Source of the DNA: Alphaproteobacteria bacterium | Lineage (GTDB): Bacteria > Pseudomonadota > Alphaproteobacteria > GCA-2731375 | Assembly: GCA_965232515.1 (NCBI GenBank) | Contig: CBDDPY010000002.1 | Coordinates: 2,784,001 to 2,848,000 of the forward strand | Length of the DNA stretch: 64,000 nt | Direction: 5' to 3' | Shown here: one piece after another, positions 1,607 to 7,039 of the stretch | Layout: each line of letters begins with the position of its first letter | How positions within the stretch are numbered: the stretch's first letter is position 1 | Position numbers and translations under genes: made by a program | Notes under the pieces: model-generated | Told to the model about the DNA's origin: nothing | Seen by the model: only the letters and a program-made list of their open reading frames with translations | The model's database searches: none

Positions 1607-2200
1607 CTAGTGCAGCAAACGCCGCAAGGTCTGCTGATCCGGCGCGCCCGTGGCGGTCAGCGAATTGTCCCGCTGGAAGCTCTGCAACGCGGCCTTGGTG
1701 GCAGGGCCGAAGGCGCCGTCGACGCTGCCCTGATAGTAGTTTCGTTCTTTCAGCGCCTGTTGCGTGCGCCGCAGGGTCTCGGCGTAGAGGTAGGTTCTGC
1801 CCTGCTCGCCCGGCAGCTCGAGCAGCTTCGAGCGGACGGCGATGCGCTCGTCTTTCAGCTTGCCGACCAGCGCCACCACCACATCGGCGAACCGGTCATC
1901 AGGGTTGTTGCTGCAGTGACTGCCGATCATTCTGGCCAAGAGGTCCGGGCTCTCGAAGGACAGCACGTCGAACGTGTCCGGTGAGAGGTGGTTGTAGGCC
2001 GAGACATAGCCCTCCAGCCACCCGCCGAACTGATAGAGCCGGTTCGTGCCGTTCTTGGCGGCATCGACGAACTGCGCGCAGTTCAATCGTCCGATGCCTT
2101 TCAGGGCGAAGGCGCCGTCCTTGTCGGCGGCGGACGCTATGGGCATCGCCAGCCAAAGAAACGCGGTTGCAAGGATCAATCTATGCGCGGTGGCGATCAT
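1607..2200 (-). CDS. Exported protein with a small helical N-domain (2 Cys, HdeA/Rap1a-like pattern) and a C-terminal peptidoglycan-binding (PG_binding_1) domain
   Basis: ATG at 2200 with GGAGAG upstream; signal peptide; QQALKERNYYQGSVDGAFGPATKAALQSFQRDNSLTATG is a classic PG_binding_1 motif. Confidence 0.8.
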   Translation of the reverse strand: MIATAHRLILATAFLWLAMPIASAADKDGAFALKGIGRLNCAQFVDAAKNGTNRLYQFGGWLEGYVSAYNHLSPDTFDVLSFESPDLLARMIGSHCSNNPDDRFADVVVALVGKLKDERIAVRSKLLELPGEQGRTYLYAETLRRTQQALKERNYYQGSVDGAFGPATKAALQSFQRDNSLTATGAPDQQTLRRLLH

Positions 2201-2254
2201 CTCTCCACGAAGCTCCCGAATTGTCATTCTTCCCGCACGGCCCGGCGCCGGTGG

Positions 2255-3529
2255 TCACCAGAGTCGGATCGGAAACGCCAGGGTCGCATCCAGGTCGGGC
2301 GCGTCCGACGTCAGGCCGACGCCGAGGCTGAAGTCGACCGAGGTCTGGTCCGTCAGGATGTAGGAAAAGCCGAACTGGAACTTGCCGACGGTGCCGGACG
2401 AGCCGGGCACGTCGAAGCCGTCGACGGTGCTCTTGCTCTGGAAATCCTGGCTCCAGCCGAAGTTGATCGACAGATCCGTGCTGAGCGCCACGGCCGACGC
2501 GATGCTGATGCCGACGATGTCGCCGGGGTCGACGTCGCCCACGGGCTTGTCGTCTTCGAGATTGAAGGTATAGCTGAGCGAGGCGATCAGCACGGCCGGG
2601 TCGACCGCCTTGACGAAGGTCACGGTCGGACGGATGGAGTGAAAGCCGGTGCCGAGCGCCAGATCGGCGTCGTTCTCGAACGGATCTTCCGCGGTCGGCG
2701 GTTTCCATTCGATGCGTGCCAATATGTCGGGCCAAGGTCCGCGGGCGAAGAAGACCTGATTGCTGAGGCCGATCTGGATGTCGCCGATGCCGTCGTTCTC
2801 GTCGTCGATCTCCTCGGCCGGCTGCGAGGCCGTAATGCGCTCCGAGCTGACGTAGCGGTAGGGGATGCTGATGTCGGCCTGGCTGTCGAAGGGCAGGCCG
2901 ACCCGGGCGCTGAACTCGCCGATCAGCGTGTCGCGCCGGACGCGCTCGGAAACGATGTCGCCGATCACCAGCACCGGCAGCAGCGCGAAGCCCTCGATGC
3001 TGATCGCGTCGAACGAGGAGTGCGAGTAGGTATAGCTGGTCTCGACCTCGAGGCCGCCCGGCGGCAGCAACAGGAGGTTGCGCCGCTGCAGCGCCGCCTC
3101 CAGGCCCCGGAGGTCTTCGCGGTGGATCACGGCGCCGGTTGAATCGTCCTGCGCGTCGGGCTCGGCCTGCGCGGCGGGCTCGGCCTGCGCCTGCGCGAGC
3201 GGCGGTTTCGGGCGCGGCGCATAGCGCGGCCCACCGAGCGATCCGTCCGGTGTCCGCACGCGCCCGATGCCGTTGATGACGTTGCCGAGATAGCTCGGCG
3301 CAACCGCCGGCGTCAGCGACAGGTTGATCTCGGGCTCGTCATCGCGTTGCGCGCGCTCGCGTTCGAGCTCCCGCGTCAGCGTGCCAACCTGGCCTTCAAG
3401 CCGCTCGATCCGGTCGAGCAGTTCCAGGATCAGCGTGTCGCGCGTGTCGTCGCTTAACGCCTGACCGAAGGCCGGCCCCGCGGCCAAGCCGATACCCGTC
3501 AGCAACGCCGCGAACGCCCGGTGCATCAT
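2255..3529 (-). CDS. fapF: FapF-like outer-membrane beta-barrel transporter
   Basis: Signal peptide, N-terminal coiled coil (LELLDRIERLEGQVGTLTRELE), Pro/Ala linker, amphipathic beta strands, GIGDIQIG, and C-terminal SLGVGLTSDAPDLDATLAFPIRLW matching the FapF-type GLTxDAPD end; 4-nt overlap with the C39 gene. Confidence 0.8.
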   Translation of the reverse strand: MMHRAFAALLTGIGLAAGPAFGQALSDDTRDTLILELLDRIERLEGQVGTLTRELERERAQRDDEPEINLSLTPAVAPSYLGNVINGIGRVRTPDGSLGGPRYAPRPKPPLAQAQAEPAAQAEPDAQDDSTGAVIHREDLRGLEAALQRRNLLLLPPGGLEVETSYTYSHSSFDAISIEGFALLPVLVIGDIVSERVRRDTLIGEFSARVGLPFDSQADISIPYRYVSSERITASQPAEEIDDENDGIGDIQIGLSNQVFFARGPWPDILARIEWKPPTAEDPFENDADLALGTGFHSIRPTVTFVKAVDPAVLIASLSYTFNLEDDKPVGDVDPGDIVGISIASAVALSTDLSINFGWSQDFQSKSTVDGFDVPGSSGTVGKFQFGFSYILTDQTSVDFSLGVGLTSDAPDLDATLAFPIRLW

Positions 3530-4344
3530 TGCCCGGCGGCATCGAGCCCGCTGCCCGATAGCGATACGGATTGATTGACGATGGAGGTGGTGAAATCGGT
3601 GCCGAAGCCTTCCAGCACCGAGGTAATGCGGCCCGAAAGGGAGCGGCGGGTGCGCAGCTCGAGCCGCCGGCTCATCAACGCGATGTTCCGGCGCTTGTCC
3701 GGAAACAGCAGCTCGACCCGCTCGAGTTCCAGCTCATGCCGGTCGGCACTTTCGGCGCCGCCCGAGCCGTCGAGGATGAAGAAGCCGATGCCGTCCTGCC
3801 AGGCATCGAGGAACTTGTCCCTGCGGATCACCGCATTGCCGACGGCGGGATCGGCGACAAAGACCCGGTCGCCCTTGACGTCCCGGAAGATGACGAAGTG
3901 ATTGAAGCCGAACAGGAACACCGGCACGATCGCCGGCATGTTGAACTCCTGCAGATCCTCGAGCGTCAGCTCGGCATAGCCTTTGGCGTCAAGGCCACGG
4001 GCGACGGCATACCGTTTCAGATCGAGCAGTGAGAAGCCGTCCCGCAGGATCGCGTTCAGCGACCGGCCGGACACCGGCACCAGCGTCTCAACGATCTCGC
4101 GTTCCTCGACCTCCAGGCCGTGCTGATAGCGCAGGATGGTCGCCAACGCGGCGGCACCGCAGGTGAAGTCCCAGTTCTGCCGAACCACCTGATTCTGGCG
4201 GATCTCCTGCAGCGACACGACCGACTTCGTGAAGCGTTGGCCGTTGATGCGAAAATCGGCAGCGTCAGCCGCCGGCGCCGCCGCGGCAACGATGCCGCAG
4301 AACACCAGGACTGACGCCGCTACAAGTCCACATGCAGATCTCAT
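3526..4344 (-). CDS. fapD: Stand-alone periplasmic C39 cysteine peptidase (FapD-like)
   Basis: Signal peptide; VVRQNWDFTCGAAALATIL (Gln and catalytic Cys), NHFVI (His), VADPAVG (Asp), GFSLLDLKRYA; no ABC domain. Confidence 0.88.
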   Translation of the reverse strand: MRSACGLVAASVLVFCGIVAAAAPAADAADFRINGQRFTKSVVSLQEIRQNQVVRQNWDFTCGAAALATILRYQHGLEVEEREIVETLVPVSGRSLNAILRDGFSLLDLKRYAVARGLDAKGYAELTLEDLQEFNMPAIVPVFLFGFNHFVIFRDVKGDRVFVADPAVGNAVIRRDKFLDAWQDGIGFFILDGSGGAESADRHELELERVELLFPDKRRNIALMSRRLELRTRRSLSGRITSVLEGFGTDFTTSIVNQSVSLSGSGLDAAGQ

Positions 4345-4351
4345 CCCGATT

Positions 4352-4789
4352 TTACTGAAACCCTCCGAGATTGGTCTGCGTCAGATTGTTGACCGTCGAA
4401 TCGACATTGATGTTCAGGTTCATGAGAACCTGGATCACCGCGTTGGCGGCATTGAGATTGACCAGGGCGCTGAGGTTCTGCTGCGCGCTGTCTGACACGT
4501 TGACGCTGCTGGTGACCGTGTTGGTCACGAAGGTCTGCGTCGGTTCCACCACTCCGATCGGAATGGCGCTCAATGTCACGTCCCCGGTGCCATCGACGGT
4601 GAACCGATTCCCCCCGACATCGTCGATCGCAAAGCTGAGTTGATTGGGCGCCGTGCTGGCCACTTCAAACGCGCCGGCCTTCACGGCGTCCAGTTCGTCG
4701 TCTGTCATCTCGCGGCCGCCGGCCTGGCTGACGCCGGCGGCCAACGAGAGACAAGCAACGAGTCCGACTAGCAGTCTTCCATGCGACAT
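4352..4789 (-). CDS. Secreted 145-aa putative minor fibre subunit with GG-type leader and one amyloid-like repeat
   Basis: Signal peptide ending SQA, then EMTDDELDAVKAG; C-terminal VNVSDSAQQNLSALVNLNAANAVIQVLMNLNINV...QTN; GGAGATACC before ATG is a weak RBS. Confidence 0.7.
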   Translation of the reverse strand: MSHGRLLVGLVACLSLAAGVSQAGGREMTDDELDAVKAGAFEVASTAPNQLSFAIDDVGGNRFTVDGTGDVTLSAIPIGVVEPTQTFVTNTVTSSVNVSDSAQQNLSALVNLNAANAVIQVLMNLNINVDSTVNNLTQTNLGGFQ

Positions 4790-4841
4790 GGAGGTATCTC
4801 CCGTCGTTCGAAGCTCGCTAAACCCCCGGAACGGCCGTTGC

Positions 4842-5828
4842 CTAGAACCGTCCCGTAATCACGTTGCTTTGACGCACTGTCCGCGATGAGGTCGTGAACG
4901 ACCCGCCGCAGCACCGGTTGACCCAAAGGTTCGAGCCCGTGCCGACGGCGCTGGAAGCCGCGTTGACGATCTTCAGGCCGGTGGCGTTGCTCTGCGCGGC
5001 GCCCGACAGCGTGACGTCGTCATCGGCGACCTTGGTGATGTCGCCGTTGCCGAGCGAGATCACTTCACCGGTCAGGCCCGTGCCTTCGGCTTCAAGCACG
5101 CTCGCGGCCGCGACGGCGGGCGTCGACGACGTGCCGATGTTGCGATCCGCCGTACAACCGCCACCAAAACAGAAGGCGGCATCGACCGGATCACCTTCCG
5201 ACCCGACTTCGAGGCCTGGACCGGAGAACTCGAACGGCCCAACTTCGATGCCGCCGGCATTGAGGTCTATAAAGGCCTCGCCAGCGACCGCGATATCGGT
5301 GTTGTTGGGCACCGACACCTCGATGACGCCAAGCACGTCGATTTCGAACTGCGCCTGGCTGGCCGAAACCGAACTGGTCGTCTGGTCGGTGTCGAGCGTG
5401 CCGGCCGCGGTCACGGTCGTGAAGTTGTTGAGCGCACCGGCGCCGGCATTCTGCGTCCGACTGGCGACGATCTCGTTGACCTGACTTGTGTCCGCGATCG
5501 TGTTCGAGAAGCTGGAGCTCCCCACCGCGCCTTCTTCGCCATTCTGAATGACGCTGATATTGACGGCGCTACCGATCGCGCTGTCAGCGCTGTTGAACAG
5601 CTCGAGGCCCGTTGCACCCTCCTGGGCATTGCCGTCCAGGTTAATTTCGCCGCGTGCGGAGATATTCACATCTCCGTCGCCCGCCTGGATCACGCCGCCA
5701 CTGAAGTCGGTCTCGCCACCGACAACCTGGGCGAGGCTGTTGTCGGTCATCTCGACCGGACCGGCAAACGCCGGCGTCGCCAGCAGGGCAATCACGCCGA
5801 CCCCTGCCGCTAGTTTTGCTAAAGTCAT
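4842..5828 (-). CDS. Secreted 328-aa putative amyloid-like fibre subunit (paralog B)
   Basis: ATG at 5828 preceded by GAGGAG; signal peptide ending AFA; EMTDNSLAQVVGG; two repeats; rich in G/S/T/N/A/V; ends in GRF. Confidence 0.75.
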   Translation of the reverse strand: MTLAKLAAGVGVIALLATPAFAGPVEMTDNSLAQVVGGETDFSGGVIQAGDGDVNISARGEINLDGNAQEGATGLELFNSADSAIGSAVNISVIQNGEEGAVGSSSFSNTIADTSQVNEIVASRTQNAGAGALNNFTTVTAAGTLDTDQTTSSVSASQAQFEIDVLGVIEVSVPNNTDIAVAGEAFIDLNAGGIEVGPFEFSGPGLEVGSEGDPVDAAFCFGGGCTADRNIGTSSTPAVAAASVLEAEGTGLTGEVISLGNGDITKVADDDVTLSGAAQSNATGLKIVNAASSAVGTGSNLWVNRCCGGSFTTSSRTVRQSNVITGRF

Positions 5829-5933
5829 CACCGTCTCCTCAAGAGCATTACCGCGCGGTCCCTGCTCGACCGTGTTTGTGTCGTGCCGACCGCGCTGTCT
5901 CATTACGTTCCCGTTCGTCTAGCGCCGCCGGTC

Positions 5934-6959
5934 CTAGAACCGGACATGCACGCTGTTGAACTGGTTGAGGTTGTTGGCGCCGCCGCTGAACGACCGCGAG
6001 CAGCAACGGTTGACCGACAGGTTCACACCGCTGCCCACGACGCTCGACGCGGCATTGACGACCTTCAGACCGGTGACGCCCTGCTGCGCGTTGTCGGTCA
6101 GGGAAACGACATCCTCGGTCGAGACCTCGATGCCGCCGCCGATGCCGTCTTCGCCTTCGCCGTTGCCGAGGCTGATTACTTCGCCGTGCAGGCCCTGGCC
6201 ACTGGCTTCGACAACCGACGCCGCGGCAACGGCCGGTCCTGACGTCGTGTCGTTTTCGCGACTGGCGTTACAGTTGCCGCCGGTCACGTAGCAGCCGGCG
6301 CCTTCGATGCCGGCATTGAGACTCGGTCCGTTGAGCGAGAAGACATCGACGTCGACGGAGAACGTCTCGATGTTGACCGTGGCGTCGCCTGCCATGGCGA
6401 AGCCCGTGCCTGTCGGCGCCGACACTTCAACGAGTCCGAGCACGTCCACGTCGATGGCGCCGGTGCTGACCGATGAGCTGTTCGTCGTGTTGTCCGTGGT
6501 CGCGATGCCGCTCGTGGTTGCGGTGGTGTAGTTGATGAGCGATTCCGCACTGGCGCTGTGGGCCGAGCTGAGCGTGATGATGTTTTCCTGGATCAAGTCC
6601 AGCGTCGAGTCGCTGGCCGAGCTGGTCGCGCCGGACAATGCCTCGAGACCGTTCTGCTCGACCGCGAGGTTGATACCGCTACCGATGTTGGAATGCGCCG
6701 TGTTGAACACTTCCAGCCCGGTCGCCATGCTCTGGGCGTCGCCCGAGAGATCGACGTCGCCGTTTTCGGTAAGCGTCACATTGCCGTCGCCGGCCGCGAT
6801 GATGCCGCCGGTGGGCGCGAGCGGGGTTTCGACGCTGAGCTCGCCCCCGACAACGCGCGCCAACGCGTCATCGCCCATTTCCTTCGGCGATCCAGCAAAC
6901 GCCGTTGCCGCGCCGAGGCACAGCACGCCGACCGCTGGCGTGAGGTATTTGAATGCCAT
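5934..6959 (-). CDS. Secreted 341-aa putative amyloid-like fibre subunit (paralog A)
   Basis: ATG at 6959 preceded by GAGGAG; signal peptide ending AFA; EMGDDALARVVGG; two repeats; colinear with paralog B; ends in VRF. Confidence 0.75.
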   Translation of the reverse strand: MAFKYLTPAVGVLCLGAATAFAGSPKEMGDDALARVVGGELSVETPLAPTGGIIAAGDGNVTLTENGDVDLSGDAQSMATGLEVFNTAHSNIGSGINLAVEQNGLEALSGATSSASDSTLDLIQENIITLSSAHSASAESLINYTTATTSGIATTDNTTNSSSVSTGAIDVDVLGLVEVSAPTGTGFAMAGDATVNIETFSVDVDVFSLNGPSLNAGIEGAGCYVTGGNCNASRENDTTSGPAVAAASVVEASGQGLHGEVISLGNGEGEDGIGGGIEVSTEDVVSLTDNAQQGVTGLKVVNAASSVVGSGVNLSVNRCCSRSFSGGANNLNQFNSVHVRF

Positions 6960-7039
6960 GGATTCTCTCCTCAACTACCGTGGTTGCAATCGATTCCAGT
7001 CACACCCTGGCGTCAGGGTGCACGATCCGATGCGCTGAA

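Follow-up and report, generated by a model that had tools for sequence, protein, structure and literature searches.

Double-glycine leaders are best known from AMS/PCAT substrates, which are small peptides without a Sec signal whose leader lies at the extreme N-terminus, has hydrophobic residues at positions −12, −7, and −4 and small residues at −2 and −1 (the final Gly being −1), and is removed on the cytoplasmic side, during export, by a C39 domain fused to the transporter. A stand-alone C39 protein, FapD, operates in the Fap system of Pseudomonas, a functional-amyloid system (fapABCDEF) that also includes FapE and the trimeric barrel FapF. In Rouse 2017, FapD acts in the periplasm, its Cys38Ala substitution abolishes secretion, mass spectrometry (MS) revealed no processing of FapA–D and did not detect the FapE N-terminus, and the Fap proteins are described as lacking canonical C39 sequences, with the FapD target unclear. 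A 2018 review likewise gives the FapD substrate as yet to be determined, and a 2025 paper and a 2026 preprint describe FapD as a protease modifying or processing Fap proteins, no site being named. Here, we describe a six-gene cluster on the minus strand of a 64,000-nucleotide window (the whole stretch of DNA that was analyzed; GenBank assembly GCA_965232515.1, contig CBDDPY010000002.1, positions 2,784,001–2,848,000) of an alphaproteobacterium. In the open reading frame (ORF) list of the window, the cluster comprises, in order, three exported subunits (A, B, and C), a C39 peptidase, an outer-membrane barrel, and a peptidoglycan-binding protein. Each subunit carries a double-glycine-type motif immediately behind its Sec signal, and we consider it likely, judging by sequence comparison, that A, B, and C are pre-pro-proteins of a FapD/FapF-type fiber system whose co-encoded C39 peptidase removes this post-Sec leader. 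Our full-text searches of the open literature (subscription-only papers being outside their scope) returned no description of a double-glycine-type leader behind a Sec signal. The features of the cluster, in window positions, are as follows:

5934..6959, minus strand: subunit A precursor (341 a.a; alternative upstream TTG at 6974)
6894..6959, minus strand: Sec-type signal peptide of A, residues 1–22, ending AFA (hydrophobic core and A-x-A site assigned by eye)
6843..6893, minus strand: propeptide of A, G23–G39, 17 residues, with leader EMGDDALARVVGG at residues 27–39 (nt. 6843–6881); predicted cut after G39
4842..5828, minus strand: subunit B precursor (328 a.a), an A paralogue with ~49% identity
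5715..5762, minus strand: propeptide of B, G23–G38, 16 residues, with leader EMTDNSLAQVVGG at residues 26–38 (nt. 5715–5753); predicted cut after G38
4352..4789, minus strand: subunit C precursor (145 a.a), consisting of signal, leader, and a single A-type repeat module
4673..4720, minus strand: propeptide of C, G24–G39, 16 residues, with leader EMTDDELDAVKAG at residues 27–39 (nt. 4673–4711); predicted cut after A38-G39
3526..4344, minus strand: stand-alone C39 cysteine peptidase with its own signal peptide (272 a.a; Gln56, Cys62, His149, Asp165)
2255..3529, minus strand: FapF-like outer-membrane barrel with an N-terminal coiled-coil region (424 a.a; 4-nt overlap with the peptidase stop)
1607..2227, minus strand: signal-bearing protein with a C-terminal peptidoglycan-binding domain (PG_binding_1, 58.2 bits), the last gene of the apparent operon

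An initial annotation, made from the window sequence alone, had reported the three motif strings, with coordinates for that of A, and we reproduced these exactly from the window using the ORF list and a script. The claimed hydrophobic spacing also holds, with M(−12), L(−7), and V(−4) present in A, B, and C alike. By a manual reading of the −3/−1 rule, signal peptidase would cut between AFA and G in both A and B, and between SQA and G in C; the implied propeptides are 17, 16, and 16 residues long. The leader ends in G-G in A and B and in A-G in C, and the residues directly past it are ELSVET, ETDFSG, and AFEVAS, respectively, the stretches that the initial annotation had predicted as mature N-termini. 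The reported “GG/AG” ending calls for refinement, the usual ending in the wider family being A-G and not G-G. Given that A and B are paralogues and that C is homologous to the N-terminal module of A/B (C family versus A family by hhalign: probability 97.7%, E 1.7e-12, 90 columns), the three operon copies are not independent, and the test must come from relatives.

The search for relatives began from sparse close homology: a word-indexed search found only five close relatives among 8,000 scored candidates. In an alignment of A, B, and four homologues (47–87% identity), nine of the 13 motif positions never vary, while a 6–9 residue indel occurs immediately C-terminal to the GG. A profile search of 1.84 billion representatives returned 116 relatives at E ≤ 1e-3, 40 of them at E ≤ 1e-10. 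From a total of 119 proteins, 109 have a signal-like hydrophobic start, and the leader sits right behind the signal in 105 of these; three of the four motif-free exceptions are internal fragments, and the ten proteins lacking a signal-like start are mostly fragments as well. Conservation across homologs, one of the checks that the initial annotation had named, was borne out in remote A/B relatives. Their leader consensus is L-S-D-x-Q-L-D-x-V/I-T-A-G, with L/M at −12 in 101, D at −10 in 84, L/M at −7 in all 105, and V/I/L at −4 in 103 of the leaders; Ala (92) or Gly (13) occupies position −2, and Gly(−1) is present in 93. The median predicted cut falls after residue 39. With relatives reaching down to ~20% identity and a mean column identity of 24% in a 64-sequence alignment, the leader is, on sequence comparison, the best-conserved part of the A/B family. 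Among 401 genomes of the host's phylum, the A/B profile matched the own genome only, and A, B, and C matched no Pfam or NCBIfam family at E ≤ 0.1, save one chance-level match of C.

Given that a leader in the query profile could bias such a search, we retrieved 23 related loci using C-terminal repeat patterns (V/I-A-N-G-V-N... and N-A-A-G-S...; from a 14-sequence alignment) with the leader unused. Directly downstream on the same strand, 21 of the 23 encode homologues of the C39 peptidase (E 1e-34 to 1e-43) and of the barrel (E 1e-55 to 1e-74) together with a C-type mini-subunit, and the remaining two loci (L098 and L101) stop at contig ends. Upstream of the peptidases lie 58 leader-bearing ORFs (after removal of three obviously hydrophobic false matches), comprising the A-type, a larger type (~390–560 mature residues in most loci), and the C-type. 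The leader is present in 21/21 C-type homologues of these loci, and Ala(−2) is invariant in 22 C-type sequences. The locus records place these clusters in the Gammaproteobacteria (Pseudomonadales, Ectothiorhodospira, Marinobacter), Desulfobacteraceae, Desulfuromusa, and several Acidobacteriota.

The peptidase matched Pfam PF03412 (Peptidase_C39) over residues 52–184 with 68.5 bits (cut-off 22), and its nearest solved structure is LahT150 (6MPZ; E 4.8e-9), with Gln56, Cys62, His149, and Asp165 aligned with the catalytic residues. The same Gln/Cys/His/Asp set is invariant in 22/22 homologous peptidases of these loci. The enzyme has a signal-like N-terminal segment and lacks a transporter domain; Pfam and NCBIfam scans of the six operon proteins returned no ABC-transporter family match. 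Against the NCBIfam models, it scored 118.8 bits for FilB (cut-off 475) and 118.0 bits for FapD (NF058616; cut-off 330), both below threshold, as was the barrel for FapF (NF058560; 111.3 bits, cut-off 700) and FilC (51.1 bits, cut-off 630). The barrel also matched Pfam Phenol_MetA_deg (53.9 bits).

Two leader-like segments in these proteins were considered separately. Within the peptidase, residues ~95–108 (V/I-x-D-P-x-L-V-x-x-x-G-F followed by S-L-L-D) fit the loose leader regular expression, as do the equivalent segments in the peptidases of L051, L053, L055–L057, and L059; this segment probably just reflects conservation of the fold and gives rise to false positives. The periplasmic N-terminus of the barrel (residues 23–50, A-L-S-D-D-T-R-D-T-L-I-L-E-L-L-D-R-I-E-R-L-E-G-Q) bears a faint leader resemblance. 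A leader at L-L-D-R-I-E-R-L-E-G-Q was rejected, as this region is a predicted coiled coil and has no hydrophobic residue at −12.

Among the closest described counterparts is the Fap system, with which the window cluster shares a stand-alone, signal-bearing C39 peptidase followed by a FapF-related coiled-coil barrel, with Sec-exported fiber proteins encoded upstream. To compare the cargo, we screened the 401 genomes with the NCBIfam FapD model at E ≤ 1e-15, which matched in 33 (a tally that includes genome G423; five above cut-off), and examined 40 loci around these matches. FapE was found in 5/5 bona fide Fap loci (NF058559; 353 bits for L047), each time with L-K-D-x-E-L/M-A-x-L-R-G-R/K followed by Y-V-M-P-G right past the signal. 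This leader has the spacing h(−12)/D(−10)/L(−7)/h(−4)/G(−2), where h is hydrophobic. FapE-like proteins of other loci have E-L-x-x-x-R-G-G/R/K at this point, and DUF6160/FilA-type proteins have M/L-D-D-x-x-L-S-x-V-T-G-Q followed by D-G-I/V-S. A fixed leader regular expression found a match within 3.5 kb of the peptidase in 27 of the 40 loci, with 50 matches in 286 kb near the peptidase versus 21 in 445 kb far from it, although some of the near ones lie inside the peptidase itself. By eye, nine of the 13 misses (L062, L064, L067, L069, L070, and L072–L075) contain E-L-x-x-x-R-G-G/R-type variants without Asp(−10); as for the rest, L078 and L079 have no variant, the peptidase of L076 is truncated, and L068 is ambiguous.

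Several features separate the window cluster from Fap. Its peptidase and barrel fall far short of the FapD and FapF equivalog cut-offs (118 versus 330 bits and 111 versus 700 bits), and it encodes no FapA, no FapB/C amyloid-repeat proteins, and no FapE. Every window subunit has the leader, whereas in true Fap loci the regular expression flags FapE; FapB-like proteins in a few Fap-like loci match more loosely. The window leaders end in G-G or A-G rather than the G-R/K of FapE. The Acinetobacter-type Fil system of pilus-like filaments resembles the window cluster in that every Fil subunit has a post-signal leader, the FilB score of the peptidase is on a par with that for FapD, and the barrel has a weak FilC match. 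In contrast, A, B, and C have no DUF6160/FilA match, Fil leaders end in G-Q, and the FilB and FilC scores stay below their cut-offs. From AMS/PCAT systems (LahT150, 6MPZ; PCAT1, 4RY2), with which it shares the C39 fold family, the aligned Q/C/H/D residues, and, by the consensus that the initial annotation and Rouse 2017 quote, the hydrophobic spacing ahead of small residues at −2/−1, the window system differs in its internal leader behind a Sec signal, its free, exported enzyme, and its substrates of a predicted 106–302 residues once mature. The cluster does fit a wider FapD/FapF-type module (not formally defined), in which a stand-alone C39 peptidase with a signal adjoins a FapF-related barrel and Sec-exported cargo that has the leader past its signal, as do 21 of the 23 related loci. 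The sister systems have Arg or Lys (FapE) or Gln (FilA) at −1, and their enzymes depart from the classical Gly(−2) rule. Overall, we read the system as a variant in which double-glycine leader processing most likely takes place in the periplasm after Sec export, on cargo of a new family.

Structural evidence on leader removal comes from the Fil side. Using a DUF6160 protein (L080:9697-10152) as the query against the PDB, we found 9XFV_A, a 173-residue chain described as “bacteria pilus (like)” (E 1.2e-5), whose first residue aligns to query position 39, just past ...S-G-V-T-G-Q, and which extends to the aligned C-terminus. According to PMC12956863, 9XFV is a native cave-water filament whose model was built automatically from a 2.9–3.4 Å map and matched to a UniProt entry, the accession named there being A0A257CJ09. 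The start of this deposited chain exactly at +1 would fit the removal of both signal and leader in the DUF6160 family. A second DUF6160-type query of the PDB returned no further filament entry.

In the mechanism that we propose, the Sec machinery would export A, B, and C, and signal peptidase would take off residues 1–22/23. The remaining 16–17-residue propeptide, with its core h-x-D-x-x-L-x-x-V-x-G/A-G, would then act as a double-glycine-type leader; the C39 peptidase, itself exported by its signal, would bind the leader through its hydrophobic face (−12, −7, −4), and Cys62/His149 would cut after G39 in A, G38 in B, and G39 in C. The mature subunits would exit via the FapF-like barrel and assemble outside. 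The propeptide may serve in docking to the export machinery, in preventing periplasmic assembly, or in both. The initial annotation had already proposed that the neighboring C39 peptidase acts on the motif as a leader in the periplasm, after Sec export, and this proposal gains support from the conservation, the linkage, the catalytic residues, the analogous leaders, and 9XFV; the cleavage itself, its exact site, and thus the mature N-termini, the order of the steps, and the purpose of the propeptide are what we infer from these observations. The leader is probably not a universal ticket to the pore, since FapE is the protein flagged in true Fap loci and FapA–D were unprocessed by MS in Rouse 2017. 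Its presence on every subunit in the window and in Fil-type loci would suit a lock on premature assembly.

The alternative that deserves the most attention, though we regard it as unlikely, is that the segment serves in docking or targeting and is left uncut once bound, with the peptidase-like protein or the barrel coiled coil handing the unfolded subunit to the pore and the peptidase cutting elsewhere (e.g., in the barrel linker or at a downstream site). Of the observations that follow, those on the −1 residue and on Rouse 2017 can be read in this way, and the others weigh more generally against our proposal. The −1 residue differs widely from family to family (G, A, S, R, K, Q); among the 21 C-type locus homologues, it is Gly in 13, Ala in seven, and Ser in one, and a close homologue of C in a related metagenome bin (L001) ends in A-R rather than A-G. 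The classical Gly(−2) rule is not kept, with −2 being mostly Ala (92/105). The earliest FapE peptide in the supplementary table of Rouse 2017 starts at residue 72 and not at ~41, which is compatible with cleavage around residue 40 and no less with cleavage further downstream; these data are tryptic, and trypsin itself cuts at the bond after Arg/Lys(−1) of FapE. The same source discusses non-catalytic C39-like domains and a possible FapF cut. The start of the 9XFV chain could also reflect disorder of uncut residues. The searches themselves call for some caution: the profile query contained the leader, which possibly favored leader-bearing matches, and searching the PDB by sequence with profiles of A/B and of C returned nothing meaningful and no solved relative of either family. 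A hidden Markov model (HMM) of the leader, built from FapD loci of other genomes, ranked the FapE-like protein of the own genome 1st but ranked C 11th, B 29th, and A 70th of 465 own-genome matches in signal context, with low scores, so that by itself it would have missed A and B; A, B, and C, therefore, represent a distinct sub-type whose link to the other families is one of spacing and not of strong similarity. What nevertheless favors removal over uncut docking is the invariance of Gln/Cys/His/Asp in all 22 peptidases, the loss of secretion with FapD Cys38Ala in Rouse 2017, the exact +1 start of 9XFV, and a hydrophobic spacing that places the G/A-G end at the classical C39 cut position.

We consider it improbable that the segment stays in the mature subunit, for example as an N-terminal extension for subunit contacts, or that another protease removes it. 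N-terminal extensions are used in other fibers, but here a variable, gapped linker comes next, the segment is always immediately behind the signal peptide, a C39 gene lies alongside in 21/23 loci, and the same spacing recurs on unrelated cargo (FapE and DUF6160). Chance resemblance, inflated by the paralogy of A, B, and C, has hardly any claim on the data. The 49% identity of A and B and the homology of C to the N-terminal module do mean that the window does not offer three independent events, and loose expressions match many unrelated frames: an early, far too loose version gave 881 matches, mostly membrane segments, a loose signal-plus-motif version gave 183, and later versions missed real variants without Asp(−10) and wrongly caught the segment inside the peptidases. 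Yet the motif is kept in 105/109 relatives, down to ~20% identity, and its linkage to the peptidase recurs in independent lineages (Gammaproteobacteria, Desulfobacteraceae/Desulfuromusa, and Acidobacteriota, per the records). In the own genome, seven of the 183 matches fall inside the three C39 clusters (22.8 kb, 0.31%) versus ~0.6 expected, two of the seven being false matches within peptidase or barrel frames.

Removal of the leader by the co-encoded peptidase is the reading that we carry forward, and it has several implications. A post-Sec leader on co-encoded cargo is a precise, testable candidate for the recognition and cut site of a FapD-type protease, the target of which is unsettled; on this last point, the initial annotation, which had named FapE as a proposed substrate, agrees with Rouse 2017 and the 2018 review. 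It would extend double-glycine processing from cytoplasmic, transporter-coupled small peptides to large, periplasmic fiber subunits. It also supplies a sequence rule for finding cargo, namely a signal followed by h-x-D-x-x-L-x-x-h-x-G/A-x beside a signal-bearing C39 gene, and reveals a cargo family that had no annotation, for which the profile search gave 116 representatives and the records name loci in the three lineages listed above. A broader interpretation, which we advance tentatively and hold a little short of even, is that stand-alone periplasmic C39 peptidases with FapF-type barrels form a widespread, undescribed two-step pathway in which the propeptide is both a ticket to the pore and an assembly lock, with FapE, FilA/DUF6160, and A/B/C as substrates. 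Under that tentative interpretation, A/B/C would make up a new surface fiber, and their family would be marked by a leader of the type ...V/I-T-A-G, Asn/Gln-rich repeat modules, and the mini-subunit C.

The own genome contains two more C39 clusters. The second (C2:7108927-7119661) is of FapD/FapF type, with a FapD-like peptidase (264.6 bits, cut-off 330) and a barrel. It encodes a FapB-like 199-a.a protein with I-N-D-D-A-L-R-D-I-A-G-V after the signal and a FapE-like protein with V-S-D-V-E-L-A-D-M-R-G-R followed by F; five paralogous ~280-a.a acidic-repeat proteins in the same cluster are leader-free, so only part of its cargo has a leader. The third (C2:6176050-6182938) encodes a signal-bearing C39 peptidase, three exported ~280-a.a paralogues, and a lipoprotein-like protein with an internal E-M-A-T-E-R-G-A followed by F ~150 residues from its start; the opposite strand encodes a coiled-coil barrel.

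Beyond the leader, the Asn/Gln-rich module (A-Q-x-x-x-x-x-L-x-x-x-N-x-A-x-S...) occurs in two copies each in A and B and in one copy in C. Cysteine pairs are common to A (C223/C230, as C-x6-C, and C319-C320) and B (C220/C225 and C306-C307), the first pair is near-invariant among 64 relatives, and both proteins terminate in R-F; disulfides or a C-terminal assembly signal are possible. AlphaFold2 gave no usable model of A from a six-sequence alignment (mean predicted local distance difference test score, pLDDT, of 26). The peptidoglycan-binding protein (1607–2227) has no homologue across the 23 related loci and has a paralogue in the second C39 cluster of the own genome; we class it as a lineage-specific accessory that may tether the machinery to the cell wall.

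The intergenic distances from A to the last gene are 105, 52, 7, −4, and 27 nt, and a GAGGAG lies 7 nt 5′ of the A start (MAFKY, ATG at 6959) and 6 nt 5′ of the B start (MTLAKL, ATG at 5828). A promoter and terminator scan found no promoter-like site, and terminator-like sites were no commoner than in shuffles. RNA-Seq libraries of two studies contain contigs 95–99% identical to the operon, which, as contigs from RNA libraries, are not proof of transcription. Two of these, of 1,514 and 1,182 nt, run from the 5′ end of the peptidase gene across C into B (window 4050–5631), the longer one reaching across most of B. Variants in these contigs at 4676 and 4727, in or near the C leader, fall at third codon positions.

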